Below, piece by piece: positions 21,119 through 29,561 of a stretch of DNA of 32,000 nucleotides. The stretch is from Nanopusillaceae archaeon (GTDB lineage Archaea; Nanobdellota; Nanobdellia; Nanobdellales; Nanobdellaceae). The stretch is from assembly GCA_049974095.1 (NCBI GenBank), contig JBMFJD010000008.1, forward strand, positions 1 to 32,000, written 5' to 3'. Below the pieces are notes generated by a model. The model saw nothing but the letters and a program-made list of their open reading frames with translations. It was not told the origin of the DNA and did no database searches. Every line of letters starts with the position of its first letter. The first letter of the stretch is position 1. Position numbers and translations under genes: made by a program.

Positions 21119-21733
21119 ATGGATGTAGCAAGTAGAGCTTCTTTAGATCAAGAAATTTATTTAAGAGGATTGACTGGATACTTGGTTGGAAAAAATTTAT
21201 TTGAAGGATATAAAAAACTGGCTATAATAACATATCCAGATAGAATTTGTTCATCAATGGCAAGTTCTGTAGTTTCTTCATTTTTATCTACAGGAATGTA
21301 TAAAGATTATAGTGCTTCAGTATTTTTATATGATGAAAATAAATTGGAAGAAATAGTAAAAGAAATAATAAAATATGATCCAGATATATTGTTTATTGCA
21401 TATGGAGGAGAGCAAAAATTATCGCATGTATCAGAAATTACAAAGAAAACAATTGAAAAATTAATGAAAAATAATTATAAAAAAGCATTGGCAATACATG
21501 TAAGAACATGGTTAGCAACAAAGCAATTATCAGATATATTGTCAGATAATAAATTAAAAGAATATTTAAAATCATTACCAGAAATAAGATTATTTACTGC
21601 AGATGCTCAAAACAAGAAATTCTTTTTCAATAAAGTAAAAATTGAAGATATTGTAAAATTAGAAAAGTTTAAAGAAGAAAATATAACTGATGAACATGCA
21701 AATTTACTAAAAATATCTATTCCACCTCAATAG
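21119..21733 (+). CDS. Hypothetical soluble protein, no family recognised
   Basis: 204-aa ORF with no TM segments. Its 3' end overlaps the nth 3' end by 17 nt. Confidence 0.5.
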   Translation: MDVASRASLDQEIYLRGLTGYLVGKNLFEGYKKLAIITYPDRICSSMASSVVSSFLSTGMYKDYSASVFLYDENKLEEIVKEIIKYDPDILFIAYGGEQKLSHVSEITKKTIEKLMKNNYKKALAIHVRTWLATKQLSDILSDNKLKEYLKSLPEIRLFTADAQNKKFFFNKVKIEDIVKLEKFKEENITDEHANLLKISIPPQ

Positions 21734-22361
21734 TTTTTCCATAATTGCATATATTTTTTATTTTACAAATATTACATCTTGGATTTATAGGTTTGCAAAT
21801 ATTTCTTCCAAAAATTACAAAAGTAAAATTAATATCTTTCCAATATTTTTCAGGAATAATTCTATATAATTCTTTTTCAGTCTCTTCAGGGCTTTTTGTT
21901 TTTACAATTCCTATTCTATTAAATATCCTATGAACATGAGTATCTACAGCAATATAATTTTTATTACATACGATTATTAAATATACATTTGCAACTTTTC
22001 TCCCAACTCCAGGTAAAGATCTGATATATTCTTCATCGCAATATTTATTATAATCCCATAAATTTGCTATTTCCTTTATCCATTTCGCTTTATTATTATA
22101 TAATCCTATATCTTTTATTGTATTTTTTATTTCTTCCAAAGATGCTTTTTTAAAATCTTCTAATTTTTTAAATTTATTAAATAATCTTTCAGATACTTCT
22201 AATGTTTTTTCTTCTCTTACTCTAATAGATAATAAAATTGTAATTAATACTTTAAAAGGATCTTTATATTTTTCCCATATATATGGAGATGCAAGTTTTT
22301 CATTAATATCGCTTTCATTTAATGTTTCTTTTACTCCTTTAATTATTTTCTCTACATCCAT
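21717..22361 (-). CDS. nth: Endonuclease III (HhH-GPD DNA glycosylase/AP lyase with 4Fe-4S cluster)
   Basis: 214-aa ORF. HhH LPGVGRKVANVYL, AVDTHVHRI, and C-terminal cluster motif CKPINPRCNICKIKNIC (C-x6-C-x2-C-x5-C). Confidence 0.9.
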   Translation of the reverse strand: MDVEKIIKGVKETLNESDINEKLASPYIWEKYKDPFKVLITILLSIRVREEKTLEVSERLFNKFKKLEDFKKASLEEIKNTIKDIGLYNNKAKWIKEIANLWDYNKYCDEEYIRSLPGVGRKVANVYLIIVCNKNYIAVDTHVHRIFNRIGIVKTKSPEETEKELYRIIPEKYWKDINFTFVIFGRNICKPINPRCNICKIKNICNYGKTIEVE

Positions 22362-22362
22362 A

Positions 22363-23589
22363 TTATATAAACATACCTTTATCTAAAGGATTTATTACAA
22401 CATAATTCCCATCATATACAACTTTTTCTACTATTTTTGAAAATTCATCAATATCTTTACTTTTTATATTCATCATTCTATTTATTAATTCTTTATTATA
22501 ATCTTCAAATAATTTACCTGTATATGGATATAATACCAATGGATCTTCAAATAATCTTTCTGATAAATTAAATTTTACTTTATAATTATCCAATATAAAA
22601 TTATATGTAATTTTTTTGATATATTTTTCGTCTATACTTTTTATTTCATTTAAAAATTCTTCTATAGCTTTATTTAATTGATATATTCTGTTTCCGTTTA
22701 TTCTCTCTAAATAAAAACTCAATATTATTTCATCATCATAATATATTAAAAATCTTATAGCAGCATTAAAAGAAATATTATATTTTTTAACTAATATATT
22801 CTTTAACAGTGTATCTCTTCCGAAGGTAAATAAAAATATTAAAGGATCATATTCAGGAAATTTCTTTGCATCTATATTTATTGAAGAAGCATAATAAGTA
22901 AAATCTGGTCTTGAAGTATAATCAGTTATATTTGTACCTTTATCCTTACTTGGATTTTTTATTTTTTCCCTTTTTCCTTCAATTTTTGAAAAATAATTTA
23001 TCAATAAATTTATATCATCCTCATCTACATTCCCTTCTAAAAATATTATTAAATTATCTGGAGTATAATATTTTCTTTTATATTCTTCCAATATTTTTTC
23101 ATTGATATTTTTTATTGTATTTTCATATCCTATAATTTGTTCTCCATAATCTGAGTATCCATATACAGATGTTGGTATTAAATTCATTAATTTACTAAAT
23201 CCATTAGCATTAGTTTTTTCAATAATGTTCAACATTTCTAATTTTAAATTTTCTATTTCATTATTCTCAAACTGCAAATTTATTATACAATTATATAATA
23301 TATCTATAATATCTTTGAATTTTTCTTTAATAGTTTGAATTACAAAAACACTCTTAGATTCTTCTGTACGAATTATATAAGTACTTCCATTATCCCCCAA
23401 TGTTTTCAATATATGTTTTTTATTGCCAGATCTAAACATAATTCTATTTTCAAAATTTGTTATTCCTCTATATTCTTTATCTTCATATATAGATCCTATA
23501 TTAAATAATAGAGCAATTCCTATTATATCTATAGGTAATTTATCTACAATTATTTTTATTCCGTTTTCTAAATTAATTTCTTTCATCAT
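22363..23589 (-). CDS. M16-family peptidase-like protein, active-site motif degenerate (probably non-catalytic subunit)
   Basis: 408-aa ORF, clearly paralogous to the upstream M16 gene (LFNIGSIYEDKEYRGI...). NFENRIMF replaces the HxxEH zinc motif. Confidence 0.8.
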   Translation of the reverse strand: MMKEINLENGIKIIVDKLPIDIIGIALLFNIGSIYEDKEYRGITNFENRIMFRSGNKKHILKTLGDNGSTYIIRTEESKSVFVIQTIKEKFKDIIDILYNCIINLQFENNEIENLKLEMLNIIEKTNANGFSKLMNLIPTSVYGYSDYGEQIIGYENTIKNINEKILEEYKRKYYTPDNLIIFLEGNVDEDDINLLINYFSKIEGKREKIKNPSKDKGTNITDYTSRPDFTYYASSINIDAKKFPEYDPLIFLFTFGRDTLLKNILVKKYNISFNAAIRFLIYYDDEIILSFYLERINGNRIYQLNKAIEEFLNEIKSIDEKYIKKITYNFILDNYKVKFNLSERLFEDPLVLYPYTGKLFEDYNKELINRMMNIKSKDIDEFSKIVEKVVYDGNYVVINPLDKGMFI

Positions 23590-24796
23590 TATTTTCAGGA
23601 TATATAAATACTTTTCTTCCTTTATTTAATTCTTTTAAATATTTTCCTAATTCATTATATTTTTCTTTTATTATTTTTTCTTCTTCATTTTCAATTTCTT
23701 CTAAACTTTTTCCAAATTTTATAATATATATTGCTTCTTCAAATAGTCTTCTAAATATATTATTTTTTACTTTTGTCAAAAATAGGAATTTTTCTCTTTT
23801 AATTCTTCCATCAATATATTCTTTATCAACATATTCTTCATATTTATCTATAAAATAATTTATTGCTTCATCCAATAGTTTTTCTTTATTTATATCGAAA
23901 CCAGGTATTAATAAAGAAAGTATAGAATAATTATAAATGGACCAACTGTTTAATGATTGTGTATATCCTATACCATATTTATTTCTAAATATTTGAAATA
24001 TTTTTGATGAAACTCCTCCAGATAATAAACTTTCTAAGGCTTCTAAATAAAATATATCATTTATATCAAAATATGTTGATAGAGAAAAATAAATTTGATC
24101 TTTTATTTCCTTCTTCTTTATTATTATATCATTTCCGTTATCTATACTTGGATTTTTCTTTTTATCACTATTTCCTTCAATTTTTTCAAAATATTCTTTT
24201 ATTTTTTTAATATGATAATCATTAAAATTTCCTTCCACAATTATTGACATATTATCTGGATTATAATATCTTTCTTTAAATTCTTCAATATCTTCCTTAT
24301 ATATATTGTTTATTGTTTCCTTTGTTCCCCCAATTGGATCTCCTAGATCAGAATTTCCAAATAAAGATTTTGAAATATTTATATTTAGTAAATCTTCAGG
24401 ATCATTTTCATATCTTAATATTTCTGATAATATTACTTTCTTTTCTTTTTCGAATTCATCCTCTTTATATTTTTTATTTATTATTGCATAATATAATATA
24501 TCTAATATTTTTTCAAATCCTTCTGGAATTGTTTCTACTAAGAATACGGTAATATCTTGGGAAGTATATGCATTTGATATTCCTCCATTTAATTCTAATC
24601 CATAATCTATTTGTTCTGTGCTATATTTTTCATTTGATTTAAACATCATATGTTCTAAGAAATGAGATATACCTCTTTTTTCCTTTTCTTCATATATAGA
24701 TCCAATATTAAATACTATACCTATACCAATACTATCTGTACCTTTCAAATATATTTTGTACAAAGGTATATTATTTTTTAAATATTCTACTTCCAT
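23573..24796 (-). CDS. M16-family zinc metallopeptidase (pitrilysin type, half-size M16B)
   Basis: 407-aa ORF with an intact inverted zinc motif HFLEHMMF (HxxEH) and a downstream conserved Glu-rich region. Confidence 0.85.
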   Translation of the reverse strand: MEVEYLKNNIPLYKIYLKGTDSIGIGIVFNIGSIYEEKEKRGISHFLEHMMFKSNEKYSTEQIDYGLELNGGISNAYTSQDITVFLVETIPEGFEKILDILYYAIINKKYKEDEFEKEKKVILSEILRYENDPEDLLNINISKSLFGNSDLGDPIGGTKETINNIYKEDIEEFKERYYNPDNMSIIVEGNFNDYHIKKIKEYFEKIEGNSDKKKNPSIDNGNDIIIKKKEIKDQIYFSLSTYFDINDIFYLEALESLLSGGVSSKIFQIFRNKYGIGYTQSLNSWSIYNYSILSLLIPGFDINKEKLLDEAINYFIDKYEEYVDKEYIDGRIKREKFLFLTKVKNNIFRRLFEEAIYIIKFGKSLEEIENEEEKIIKEKYNELGKYLKELNKGRKVFIYPENNDERN

Positions 24797-24839: not shown

Positions 24840-25241
24840 ATGCCAGAAATACAGGTAAAAAAAGTAATTGATTTAAAGAAAGGATCATATGTATGGTACA
24901 ATAATGAAGTATGGGAAGTATTAGAAATGGAAACTGCAAAGACAGGAAAACATGGATCTGCTAAGGCAAGAATTGTAATAAGATCATTAATTTCTGGAAA
25001 GACTACAGAATTAGTAAAACCTACCCAGGATCCAATAGAAGTACCTATTATAAATAAAATAAGGGGACAAGTAATAGCAAAGGTATCTGATGATACATAT
25101 ACAGTAATGAATCTAGATAATTATGAAACATTTGATGCAAAAGTAATTGATGAAAATTTAAAAGGAAAAATACAAGAAGGACAAAAAGTTTTAGTATGGG
25201 ATGTTGGAGAGAAAATAATAGTACAAGCATTTAGAGAATGA
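24840..25241 (+). CDS. eif5a: Translation initiation factor 5A (aIF5A)
   Basis: 133-aa ORF with the hypusination loop TAKTGKHGSAKARI. Confidence 0.92.
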   Translation: MPEIQVKKVIDLKKGSYVWYNNEVWEVLEMETAKTGKHGSAKARIVIRSLISGKTTELVKPTQDPIEVPIINKIRGQVIAKVSDDTYTVMNLDNYETFDAKVIDENLKGKIQEGQKVLVWDVGEKIIVQAFRE

Positions 25242-25552
25242 ATATAAAAGAGAAAATAGAAAATAGGTTAGATAATATATTAAATAAATATCCTACTCTA
25301 AAAAATTTTTTGTTAAATACTTTAAAATGGTATTTTCCAGAGGATAAAAATAAATTAAAGAAAATCTATCTTTTTAATACTCTTGGTTATGTAATTTCTC
25401 TTTCAGTTTATTATTATATTTTTCATGATCCTAAATCATTTTATATTTTACAATCAAGTGTCCAATATATAGTAAATAATGCTTTACCTACAATGTATAC
25501 TAAAATAGAAGGTATAAGGGAAATATTAAAAGAAATTATACCTTATATTTAA
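25238..25552 (+). CDS. Hypothetical protein (one hydrophobic segment)
   Basis: 104-aa ORF with 4-nt ATGA overlap to aIF5A. Its 3' end overlaps the nfi 3' end by 17 nt. No family recognised. Confidence 0.4.
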   Translation: MNIKEKIENRLDNILNKYPTLKNFLLNTLKWYFPEDKNKLKKIYLFNTLGYVISLSVYYYIFHDPKSFYILQSSVQYIVNNALPTMYTKIEGIREILKEIIPYI

Positions 25553-26426
25553 TTTTTTTACTTATTTCGTCTGCTAATCTAATTGGCTCTGGATAATTTC
25601 CCTTAATCCAATATTTTTCTGCTAATTCTTTACTTTTTTCTAATGATATTAAATTTCCTGGAGAAGCATATATTTTTTTATTTTCCTTTTCAATTATATA
25701 TCCTCTTACTTCATTATCTATTATTATTTTATTGTCAATTATTTTTCCAGTTAATAAAGATTTTGTAATTCCTATTGTTGGTATATTTAATATTACTCCT
25801 ACATATGATGCAAGTCCCATTTTTACAGGATGAGATATTCCATGTCCATTTACAAACAAAATATCTATTTTTTCTTTTATTTTATTAAATGTCTTTATAA
25901 TTGGTTCTCCTTCTCTAAATGCTAAAAATGATGGAATATATGGAAATTCAATTTTTTCTTTAAAAATATATTTATTAATTAAATTTAATTCTTTATCTAA
26001 AATAACATAAACAATATATCCAAAATCATCTTTATAACTTAAATCTACTCCTCCAATATAAATTATTTCTTTAAATCCATTTTCCAATATTATTTTTTTA
26101 GCTAATTCTTCTTGTATTTTTCTGTATTTTTCCAATATTTTTTCTTTAACAAAAAAATCTTTAAATAAATATTTATCTAAATCTATTTTATTACCATTAA
26201 TTATTACACCCTCTTTTATTAATAATTCTTTTTGTTTCAAATCTTTTACTATTCCATTTTCATTTACTACTCTCCACCATGGAGCATTTATTTTTTTATA
26301 ATATTGCAAAATAAATTTTATTGAATATGTAGATCCTAGGTATTCAGATAATATTTTGAATGTACTTATTTTGCCCTTTGGTATTTGATTAATTAAATTT
26401 TTTAGTTCTTCCAAAATTTCATGCAT
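25536..26426 (-). CDS. nfi: Fusion protein: N-terminal alkyltransferase-like (ATL, no acceptor Cys) domain + Endonuclease V
   Basis: 296-aa ORF. Residues 1-80 resemble the AGT DNA-binding domain (IPKGKISTFKILSEYLG...NAPWWRVVNENG...KELLIKEG), with PWWRV in place of PCHRV. Residues about 115-296 carry EndoV motifs GGVDLSY, YIPSFLAFREGEP, VNGHGISHPVKMGLASYVGV and PTIGITKS. Confidence 0.85.
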   Translation of the reverse strand: MHEILEELKNLINQIPKGKISTFKILSEYLGSTYSIKFILQYYKKINAPWWRVVNENGIVKDLKQKELLIKEGVIINGNKIDLDKYLFKDFFVKEKILEKYRKIQEELAKKIILENGFKEIIYIGGVDLSYKDDFGYIVYVILDKELNLINKYIFKEKIEFPYIPSFLAFREGEPIIKTFNKIKEKIDILFVNGHGISHPVKMGLASYVGVILNIPTIGITKSLLTGKIIDNKIIIDNEVRGYIIEKENKKIYASPGNLISLEKSKELAEKYWIKGNYPEPIRLADEISKKIKYKV

Positions 26427-26466
26427 ATCTATTATATTTAAAAAAGTTATTTATAGTTAATATTAA

Positions 26467-26730
26467 ATGAAGGATTGGATAAAAGAAGCAGGATTAGGAT
26501 TAATATTATTTCTAATAGGAGTAGGATTAGTATGGTATTGGTTAGGAGAAGTAATATTAATTATAAAAGGATTGATAGGACCTGTATTATTAATATTAGG
26601 ATTAATATTATTGTGGGTAGGATATGAGGATAAAAAAATAGAAAAGGAATTAAAGGAAATTGAAAAGGAATTAGAAAAGGAAGAAAAAGAGGAAAATAAA
26701 CAAAATCAAAATCAAGAAAATAAGCAATGA
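26467..26730 (+). CDS. Hypothetical small membrane protein with a K/E-rich tail
   Basis: 87-aa ORF with two hydrophobic segments and a low-complexity EKELKEIEKELEKEEKEE tail. 4-nt ATGA overlap with rpl15e. Confidence 0.45.
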   Translation: MKDWIKEAGLGLILFLIGVGLVWYWLGEVILIIKGLIGPVLLILGLILLWVGYEDKKIEKELKEIEKELEKEEKEENKQNQNQENKQ

Positions 26731-28583: not shown

Positions 28584-29561
28584 ATGGCGGATGAGGAAAA
28601 AGAAGAAATTAAAAGTTTAGAAGACTTACCTGGAGTAGGTCCAAAAACTGCACAAAAATTGAGAGATGCTGGTATATTTACAATAGAAGATTTAGCAATG
28701 TCTTCTGTTCATGAGTTAGTTGAAAAAGTTGGATTAGGAGAAGAAACTGCAAAGAAATTAGTAGAAATGGCTCAAGATATTGTAGGACACGGATTTAAAA
28801 CAGCATATGATTATTTTAATACAAGACAAGTAATAGAAAGAATAACTACAGGATCTAAAGCATTGGATGATTTATTGGGTGGTGGAGTTGAAACTCAATC
28901 TTTAGTAGAAGCTTTTGGTGAATTTGGATCTGGAAAAACTCAATTGGGTCATCAATTAGCAGTAAATGTTCAATTAACAAAAGATAAAGGAGGATTAAGC
29001 GAACCAGATAAACCCGCTCAGGCAGTATATATTGATACCGAAGGTACATTTAGACCTGAGAGAATTGTACAAATGGCAAAGGGGGCAGGATTAGATCCAG
29101 ATTCTGTATTAAAAAACATATTATTTATTAGAGCATATAATTCTGATCATCAAATAAATATTGTAAAGAGAATACCAAGTTTAATACATGAAGGTAAAAA
29201 TATTAGGTTATTAGTAATAGATTCTATTACTGCACACTTTAGAGCAGAATATATTGGAAGAAGTAATTTAGCAGAAAGACAACAAAAATTAAATCAACAT
29301 TTAAGGGATTTATTAAAGTTGGCTACTGTTTATAATATTTCAGTATATGTTACAAATCAGGTTATGGCAAAGCCAGAAGGATATTTTTCATTAGATCAAC
29401 AAGCAGTTGGTGGACATGTTTTAGCTCATGCAATAACGTATAGAATATTTTTAAGAAAGGGTAAAGAGAGGACAAGGATTGCAAGATTAATTGATGCACC
29501 ACATTTACCAGAGAGAGAGGCAGTATTTAAGATAACTGAAGAGGGTATTAGGGATGTATAA
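28584..29561 (+). CDS. radA: DNA repair and recombination protein RadA
   Basis: 325-aa ORF. N-terminal Hh[20 protein letters not shown], Walker [10 protein letters not shown], Walker B LLVIDS, and conserved YVTNQV and GGHVLAH. Confidence 0.95.

Follow-up and report, generated by a model that had tools for sequence, protein, structure and literature searches.

We analysed a stretch of 32,000 nucleotides from a tiny symbiotic archaeon of the Nanopusillaceae (Nanoarchaeota, DPANN; GenBank assembly GCA_049974095.1, contig JBMFJD010000008.1, positions 1 to 32,000; hereafter the window) and found that one of its genes, on the reverse strand at 25536-26426, joins two repair-type domains in a single polypeptide. 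The first is an alkyltransferase-like (ATL) domain that lacks the acceptor cysteine of O6-alkylguanine-DNA alkyltransferase (AGT), and the second is an endonuclease V (EndoV). This domain-level reading of the open reading frame (ORF) is real and confirmed far beyond chance. The explanation we favor, with a probability of roughly 55%, is that the protein is a functional single-polypeptide damage endonuclease in which EndoV would nick DNA while the Cys-less ATL-like domain would act as a non-catalytic binder or prober.

An ATL-like domain and EndoV in one reading frame

The fusion ORF begins with ATG and encodes 296 amino acids, in a window whose G+C content lies between 20 and 26%. Two public proteins are 100% identical to its product, P0001 (JGI) and P0002 (NCBI, 'MAG: endonuclease V [Nanopusillaceae archaeon]', MAG standing for metagenome-assembled genome), and among named relatives the nearest is from Nanoarchaeota archaeon YN1, at 84% identity, followed by those from Candidatus Nanopusillus at 77% and Nanobdella aerobiophila at 66%. 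An earlier note on the window, written by a model from the letters alone, had proposed an AGT-type N-terminal part and EndoV in this one ORF, and the Pfam profiles PF01035 and PF04493, phmmer searches of the PDB and fold matches all support it. By its sequence, the protein is a member of a class of archaeal ATL-EndoV proteins that had already been noted. The gene and the features of its N-terminal part are:

25536..26426, reverse strand: whole gene, fusion of an ATL-like domain and endonuclease V (ORF list; 296 codons and a stop)
26163..26426, reverse strand: N-terminal ATL-like domain, residues 1-88, with the fold of the AGT C-terminal domain and without the AGT N-terminal domain (PF01035, PDB phmmer, Foldseek)
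26301..26360, reverse strand: helix-turn-helix (HTH), helices 23-30 and 33-42, with Phe23 and Lys37 (DSSP of the model, Atl1 alignment)
26268..26282, reverse strand: PWWRV motif in the place of PCHRV, with Trp50 in the acceptor-Cys column and Trp51 in the His column (translation, alignment columns)
26211..26267, reverse strand: shortened 'active-site loop' and helix, residues 54-72, 19 amino acids (alignments, loop-length table)

PF01035 matches residues 10-73 with 26.0 bits (E 8.5e-6), 1 bit under its gathering cut-off of 27 bits. Among all PDB chains searched by phmmer, the best matches of the N-terminal half are ATLs, namely vpAtl (2kif, 1e-5) and S. pombe Atl1 (3gva, 6e-5), and the AGTs reach E 0.2 or worse at best. 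An AlphaFold (AF2) model of residues 1-95, with a pLDDT of 94.7, has Atl1, vpAtl and the Atl1-DNA complex as its top three PDB fold matches in Foldseek (TMq 0.80-0.83, E 4e-7 to 3e-6, root-mean-square deviation (rmsd) ~2 Å), the match to Atl1 reaching TMq 0.83 and E 4e-7. The best AGT by fold is at E 1.8e-3 and TMq 0.68, and all 42 of the 42 top matches belong to the AGT/ATL family. Profile, sequence and fold comparisons thus agree with the initial view that the first ~80 residues are AGT-like, and place ATLs closest. An exhaustive phmmer search of residues 1-88 against 1.84 billion representatives returned 40 matches at E <= 1e-3. Those beyond the nanoarchaeal clade to which the window protein belongs (the nano clade) are mostly stand-alone proteins of ~100 amino acids with 36-48% identity, some of them ATL-type, with PWHRV, PWYRV or, in one case, PWWRV, and some mini-AGTs with PCHRV, mixed with other fusions. 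On sequence grounds, either an AGT-EndoV ancestor or a stand-alone ATL could have given rise to the domain.

On the reverse strand, 26265-26282 translates to PWWRVV. The alignments place no Cys at or near the acceptor column, where Trp50 stands, and the activating His is replaced by Trp51, in agreement with the original reading that PWWRV has taken the place of PCHRV and that the acceptor Cys is gone. In an alignment of 31 nano-clade sequences, position 50 is Trp in 28, Ile in two and Phe in one; position 51 is Trp in 26, Tyr in three and His in two; position 52 is Arg in 30 and Lys in one; and Asn55 is present in 28 of the 31. Within the HTH, Phe23 occupies the position of human AGT Tyr114 and Atl1 Tyr25 (clade: Phe 25, Tyr 6), and Lys37 (codon 26316-26318) that of the Arg finger, Atl1 Arg39 or human AGT Arg128 (clade: Lys 26, Arg 5). 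The phmmer alignment with Atl1 pairs its Tyr25, Arg39, Trp56, His57 and Arg69 with Phe23, Lys37, Trp50, Trp51 and Lys61, respectively. The N-terminal residues kept in the clade (Phe/Tyr23, Lys/Arg37, Trp50, Trp51, Arg52 and Asn55) are positions that are important in AGT/ATL-DNA complexes.

Comparison with the YN1 orthologue gives a ratio of nonsynonymous to synonymous substitution (dN/dS) of 0.134 in residues 1-88 and of 0.133 in the EndoV part, and the mean pairwise identity over 29 clade members is 56% for the N-terminal domain and 64% for EndoV. The Cys-less N-terminal domain is under functional constraint equal to that on the nuclease. Decay of the domain as a remnant was considered and rejected on the ratio of 0.134. 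A related alternative holds that the domain is left over from an AGT-EndoV ancestor and is kept for folding or stability, with no role on nucleic acid. The repeated loss of Cys in the fusion family, alongside loop deletion, would fit this, as would the Bathyarchaeota-type proteins that keep only half of the domain (see below). Such a remnant would not be expected to match the nuclease in dN/dS, however, nor to conserve precisely those residues that contact DNA or flip the base (F/Y23, K/R37 and WWR), and even the truncated forms have held on to the HTH half. We therefore hold this explanation to be decidedly unlikely.

The full-length AF2 model has a pLDDT of 96.7 and a pTM of 0.91, the latter implying that the model fixes how the domains are oriented to each other. 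In this confident model, the ATL-like domain is predicted to pack rigidly on the nuclease.

A remodelled metal site in the nuclease domain

PF04493 (Endonuclease_5) covers residues 107-286 with 165.5 bits against a cut-off of 23.4 (E 1.6e-48). NCBIfam equivalog models are also matched (NF041102, E 2.3e-48), yet the scores fall short of the strict thresholds, 300 and 230 bits. Structures of Thermotoga maritima (Tma) EndoV are recovered at E ~1e-32 by sequence and at E 4e-22 by fold in Foldseek, with an rmsd of ~2 Å over ~208 columns. The domain and its functional positions are:

25539..26138, reverse strand: endonuclease V domain, residues ~97-296 (PF04493, NF041102, Tma EndoV sequence and fold)
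26043..26045, reverse strand: Asp128, catalytic Asp (Tma D43); GGVDLS against Tma AGVDLS, kept in 193 of 196 sequences
25932..25943, reverse strand: PYIP wedge, residues 162-165 (Tma P79-P82); near-invariant columns of the alignment
25911..25913, reverse strand: Glu172, catalytic Glu (Tma E89); AFREG against AFREG, invariant column
25848..25850, reverse strand: Asn193, in the place of the Asp that binds Mg2+ (Tma D110); FVNGH against vvfDGqG, codon AAT (GAT being Asp)
25761..25763, reverse strand: Lys222 (Tma K139); GITKS against GVAKS, Lys in 30 and Arg in four clade members
25569..25571, reverse strand: Asp286 at the Tma H214 position, where E. coli EndoV appears to have Asp as well; RLADE against RLAHI

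The hypoxanthine pocket of EndoV consists of G83, L85, G111, G113, G121 and L142, and a role of the wedge has been described (PMC4650699). The pocket residues are present here as L168, G194, G196, G204 and L225, with Ser166 in the place of Tma G83, as in most fusions. The domain shares 34-36% identity, an rmsd of ~2 Å, an RNase H-like fold and the PYIP wedge with Tma EndoV (2w35, 6ozf) and E. coli Nfi (4xpu). Equivalents of Tma D43, E89, K139, G111, G113, G121 and L142 are retained, and G83 is changed to Ser/Thr. Unlike the Tma enzyme, the window protein has Asn for D110, Asp for H214 and Val for R118, and it carries an extra N-terminal domain.

These changes fall on the metal site. The active site of Tma EndoV is composed of D43, E89, D110 and H214 (PMC3025561); D43 and D110 coordinate Mg2+ directly, and K139 contacts the 5'-phosphate at the nick (PMC4650699). 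The earlier note had taken the EndoV to be complete, with all of its motifs, which was not borne out: the substitutions of D110 by Asn193 and of H214 by Asp286 are clade-wide and yield the pattern D-E-N-D, as against the usual D-E-D-H. Asn stands at the D110 position in 34 of 34 nano-clade sequences and Asp286 in 33 of them (one is gapped), and every member keeps the wedge and the D43 and E89 equivalents, with Lys or Arg always at the K139 position. A sequencing error was rejected as the origin of Asn193, as all 34 clade members, some with as little as ~50% identity, have Asn here. By this conservation, D-E-N-D is a selected state of the clade.

The conservation of the D43, E89 and K139 equivalents and of the wedge despite Asn110 (Tma numbering) argues for maintained catalysis. 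Asn can serve as a Mg2+ ligand in other nucleases. With Mn2+, all Tma active-site mutants other than those of D43 still cut at inosine, and the active-site mutants lose non-specific nuclease activity (PMC3025561). Judging from the conserved residues, from Asp286 as a third carboxylate and by analogy with Asn ligands and the Tma mutants in Mn2+, catalysis is probably kept despite Asn193, and the Asn193/Asp286 site probably lowers or tightens EndoV activity rather than abolishing it.

We surveyed the wider family using the best 120 database matches together with 80 loci from one-genome-per-species GTDB contigs. This yielded 196 non-identical sequences, 157 of them with an N-terminal AGT-like domain; the sample is skewed to relatives of the query, and its counts are not population frequencies. 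Every Asp110 sequence among the 196 retains Lys139. Where Asn110 occurs outside the nano clade (examples are P0036, P0039, P0041, P0050/51/68, P0087, P0103, P0110, L006, L026, L036, L074 and L077), Lys139 is replaced by Ala, Ser, Thr or Gln in 11 of 17 sequences and by Arg in two. D43 and E89 are kept throughout the Asn110 EndoVs, and in the nano clade Asn110 is accompanied by Asp in the place of His214. To judge from these columns, the Asn110/Lys139/His214 pattern looks like a charge-balanced co-variation within the active site. Asn is found at the D110 position in 12 of the 39 standalone archaeal EndoVs sampled. Among Cys-bearing fusions this position is Asp in 63, Gly in two and Asn in none, such that all Asn110 fusions are Cys-less. 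We found no description of an Asn110 EndoV subclass in the literature searched.

These observations bear on the possibility that the protein is a doubly non-catalytic sensor, with Cys changed to Trp in one domain and a disabled or attenuated nuclease in the other, that marks inosine or alkylated bases for other nucleases. The closest PDB match of the protein, chain 6ozf, is by its title the D110N mutant of Tma EndoV crystallised with inosine DNA, the very substitution seen at Asn193; D110 is a direct Mg2+ ligand (PMC4650699), and the restriction of Asn110 to Cys-less fusions would also be in keeping with a sensor. Strict conservation of D43, E89, K139 and the wedge in the nano-clade proteins would nevertheless be unexpected had catalysis been abandoned. 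The third carboxylate from Asp286, the use of Asn as a Mg2+ ligand by other nucleases and the presence of Asn110 in standalone archaeal EndoVs point the same way. So does the cleavage at inosine by Tma mutants outside D43 when Mn2+ is supplied (PMC3025561). We consider such a sensor unlikely. Similarly improbable, in our estimation, is that the Asn-type EndoVs form an undescribed subclass with altered or switched-off catalysis, which in Nanoarchaeota, in combination with a Cys-less ATL, would make a non-catalytic or metal-gated dual lesion reader that hands inosine or alkyl lesions on to other nucleases.

The fusion family and the role of the N-terminal domain

Fusions in the survey are carried by archaea (Nanoarchaeota, Thermoplasmata, Aciduliprofundum, Methanomassiliicoccales, Bathyarchaeota and Nitrososphaerota) and by bacteria (Bipolaricaulota/Acetothermia, Fraserbacteria, Planctomycetes, Thermotogae MAGs and a Desulfohalobiaceae MAG). 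The earlier note had proposed counting Cys against Trp variants of the fusion, and among the 157 Cys occupies the acceptor column in 65. At this position 41 have Trp (30 from the nano clade), 24 have Ser (chiefly Bipolaricaulota, PS[HY]RV) and six have Val; other members show Ile, Phe, Ala, Gly, Thr, Arg, Glu or Asn. The loop that follows is 24-27 residues long in 62 of the 65 Cys-bearing fusions and mostly 18-19 in the Cys-less ones.

Several subgroups illustrate how the domain has changed. In P0050, P0051, P0068, P0110 and L026, from Bathyarchaeota-type MAGs, only the HTH half is left, and the PCHRV segment, the loop and the next helix are deleted. The Ser-type bacterial fusions (L014, L017, L023, L024, L028 and ~20 of the P series, from Bipolaricaulota, Fraserbacteria and Thermotogae MAGs) combine PSHRV or PSYRV with a short loop and an unusual 'DGTGTLHH' EndoV motif; the Ser has a parallel in C145S, the substitution carried by a crystallised human AGT-DNA complex, 1t38 (PMC10779285). 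L032 and L065, from Thermoplasmata and Methanobacteriota MAGs, have PWHRV, a full-length loop of 26 residues and Asp110. By these features they look nearer to classical ATLs, and for incision coupled to O6-alkylguanine they may serve better than the window protein as candidates. Overall, the aligned sequences show a pattern in which Cys has been lost many times and the pocket has then eroded, while every form keeps the HTH. Given this repeated degeneration to HTH-only forms, an accessory DNA binder or prober fits at least as well as a reader of O6-alkylguanine.

In a neighbor-joining tree of the EndoV domains, the nano clade is monophyletic and P0030/31, with PIHRV and a long loop, group with it; the tree has no support values and is used qualitatively. 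A single origin of the fusion had been considered on the basis of a shared 'LFxDF...PL' linker and was dropped: 'IDL.KYLF' is the C-terminus of stand-alone ATL/AGT proteins and the next helix belongs to EndoV. The junction is nearly direct and thus offers no independent evidence for a single fusion origin.

The comparisons in this analysis establish the identities of the domains, their substitutions, fold and selection, and the synteny and distribution of the fusion. For the function of the protein, we infer nuclease activity and N-terminal DNA binding, along with any lesion specificity, as follows. The predicted catalytic part is the EndoV domain, with its PYIP wedge, glycine-lined hypoxanthine pocket, Asp128, Glu172 and Lys222, which would most likely use the D-E-N-D site to nick DNA at deoxyinosine and at similar deaminated or aberrant bases, one nucleotide to their 3' side. 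The N-terminal 88 residues would contribute a minor-groove HTH, the basic finger Lys37, the aromatic Phe23 at the flipping position and a Trp-Trp-Arg pocket floor. With these, the ATL-like domain most likely binds DNA and probes bases non-enzymatically, which would raise the efficiency and affinity of the nuclease's search for lesions. Binding of O6-alkylguanine by this domain is possible.

Some of our observations weigh against this proposal. The pocket-wall segment between RV and EG has 19 residues in the window protein versus 24-26 in vpAtl, Atl1 and human AGT, and is therefore 5-7 residues shorter; in the alignments, the fusion protein is without the full-size loop by which ATLs bind O6-alkylguanine lesions. 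Position 61, the equivalent of Atl1 Arg69, is variable in the clade (Lys 11, Asn 10, Arg 3). The truncated alkyl-pocket loop and the non-conserved Arg69 equivalent together make lesion-specific reading by the N-terminal domain doubtful. In the nuclease, Asn193 is the substitution of the crystallised D110N mutant, and activity could be very low. Literature searches found no biochemical study of any Cys-less fusion, the primary papers on the fusions being known through a review.

The short loop also bears on the alternative in which the ATL-like domain specifically binds O6-alkylguanine, flipping it out, and EndoV, being tethered, incises the same strand beside the lesion. This would make a one-protein route of alkylation excision in an organism whose repair set is minimal. 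This idea has been raised in the literature (PMC10779285), and it would agree with several features of the protein: in sequence and fold the domain is nearest to bona fide ATLs, which bind O6-alkylguanine; like them it has Trp at the acceptor position; its basic finger and aromatic residue are conserved; and the predicted geometry between the domains is rigid. Set against these are the short pocket wall, the changes of the Arg finger to Lys and of Tyr to Phe, the variable Arg69 equivalent, and the sister lineages that have lost the entire pocket half and yet retain the fusion. EndoV moreover has a lesion pocket of its own, intact here, that dictates cleavage, and the two activities of the Ferroplasma enzyme, in the review's description, target different lesions (PMC10779285). 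We regard this route as possible but doubtful.

It is very unlikely, in our view, that the main target is inosine-containing RNA, as for eukaryotic EndoV, with the ATL-like domain as an extra nucleic-acid-binding module. EndoVs including the E. coli enzyme do cleave inosine-containing RNA (PMC3741635), but in both sequence and structure the protein lies nearest to EndoVs of the DNA-repair type from bacteria and archaea, and the AGT/ATL HTH binds the minor groove of DNA. The presence of DNA-repair genes (a HhH-GPD glycosylase and RadA) in the conserved neighborhood is weak evidence in the same direction.

The architecture has precedents. A 2023 review of the AGT family credits the archaeal ATL-EndoV fusion to Tubbs et al. 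2009 and relates the speculation of Pegg 2011 that the EndoV domain is XPG-like in ATL-initiated nucleotide excision repair (NER), or provides extra DNA contacts that speed translocation; it also describes the F. acidarmanus AGTendoV of Kanugula 2005 as bifunctional, with O6-alkylguanine transfer and EndoV cleavage (PMC10779285). Tethered incision is thus an existing hypothesis. Of the novelty claimed in the earlier note, the absence of biochemistry on a Cys-less fusion agrees with our searches, but neither the architecture nor the route is new, as both appear in that review. Its distribution figure draws on the Nanoarchaeum equitans and Korarchaeum genome papers (PMC10779285), which suggests that the first ATL-EndoV examples included one from the nanoarchaea.

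The fusions of Tubbs et al. 2009 have the same order, with a Cys-less domain directly N-terminal to EndoV, and the same hypothesis, of a tethered incision nuclease or additional DNA contacts, applies to them; the PWWRV motif, short loop, Lys finger, Asn ligand and clade-wide conservation seen here are not found in the texts consulted. Ferroplasma acidarmanus AGTendoV has the same domain order, with the junction at the equivalent place in the alignments, but it retains the acceptor Cys, which in the window protein gives way to Trp, together with a loop of 19 residues and Asn at the D110 position. Among stand-alone ATLs (Atl1, 3gva/3gx4; vpAtl, 2kif; E. coli Atl/YbaZ; T. thermophilus TTHA1564), the best matches are at 27-30% identity and TM 0.80-0.83. 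They have in common with the N-terminal domain of the fusion a single ~100-amino-acid domain of the AGT C-terminal type, Trp at the Cys position, RV[VI]N..G and a C-terminal 'IDL.KY' hairpin. Unlike these ATLs, which recruit NER proteins in trans, the N-terminal domain here is fused to a nuclease, and it differs from them further in its Lys for the Arg finger, Phe for Tyr, Trp at the His position (His in Atl1, Phe in vpAtl) and shorter loop. What is genuinely new here is the conserved Asn at the metal-ligand position with its co-variation, the short pocket loop, and the finding that the fusion family is broad and has degenerated repeatedly, bacterial Ser variants among its members.

Genomic setting and significance

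The fusion gene is a stable core gene that lies outside any repair operon. The order RadA-SufBD-SufC-L15e-[fusion gene]-aIF5A-M16 peptidase-HhH-GPD glycosylase is conserved, and the same neighborhood is found in four genomes, those of YN1, Nanopusillus, Nanobdella and a further MAG of the Nanopusillaceae. The fusion gene forms a transcription unit of its own, both flanking genes being on the opposite strand, one convergent and one divergent. In the window, the glycosylase (21717-22361, reverse strand; PF00730, E 5e-20) and RadA (28584-29561, forward strand; PF08423, E 1e-87) lie ~2-3 kb to either side of it. Their proximity probably reflects the synteny of a compact genome rather than a repair operon, because they are on different strands and translation and Fe-S genes are interleaved.

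At its 3' end, the fusion gene overlaps a convergent hydrophobic ORF of 104 amino acids (25238-25552, forward strand) by 17 nucleotides (25536-25552). This ORF has no Pfam match, and weak homologues occur at the equivalent position in YN1 and Nanopusillus. A spacer of 40 bp (26427-26466), nearly pure A+T, separates the fusion start codon from a divergent ORF for an 87-amino-acid membrane protein (26467-26730, forward strand), and the promoters of the two must therefore overlap. Further along are two tandem, overlapping genes for M16 (insulinase-type) peptidases (22363-23589 and 23573-24796, both on the reverse strand), of which only the second has a recognisable HxxEH zinc motif (HFLEH). The syntenic regions of YN1, Nanopusillus and Nanobdella have one M16 gene between aIF5A and the HhH-GPD glycosylase.

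ATL proteins illustrate how a catalytically dead repair protein can divert base damage into excision repair, and the genomes of Nanoarchaeota, at ~0.6-0.8 Mb, hold very few repair genes. With the fusion and the hypothesis already in the literature, specialists will meet no conceptual surprise here; the value of the Nanopusillaceae protein is as a well-defined, strongly conserved and easily expressed candidate. A natural covalent fusion of ATL and nuclease is the simplest system in which to test direct coupling of lesion reading to incision, and the conserved Asn at a metal-ligand position is a natural experiment on EndoV catalysis. Should the protein nick at O6-alkylguanine, it would constitute a minimal alkylation-excision pathway. 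If the ATL-like domain merely helps EndoV to find deaminated bases, it would be a suicide repair protein recycled as a DNA-binding accessory.

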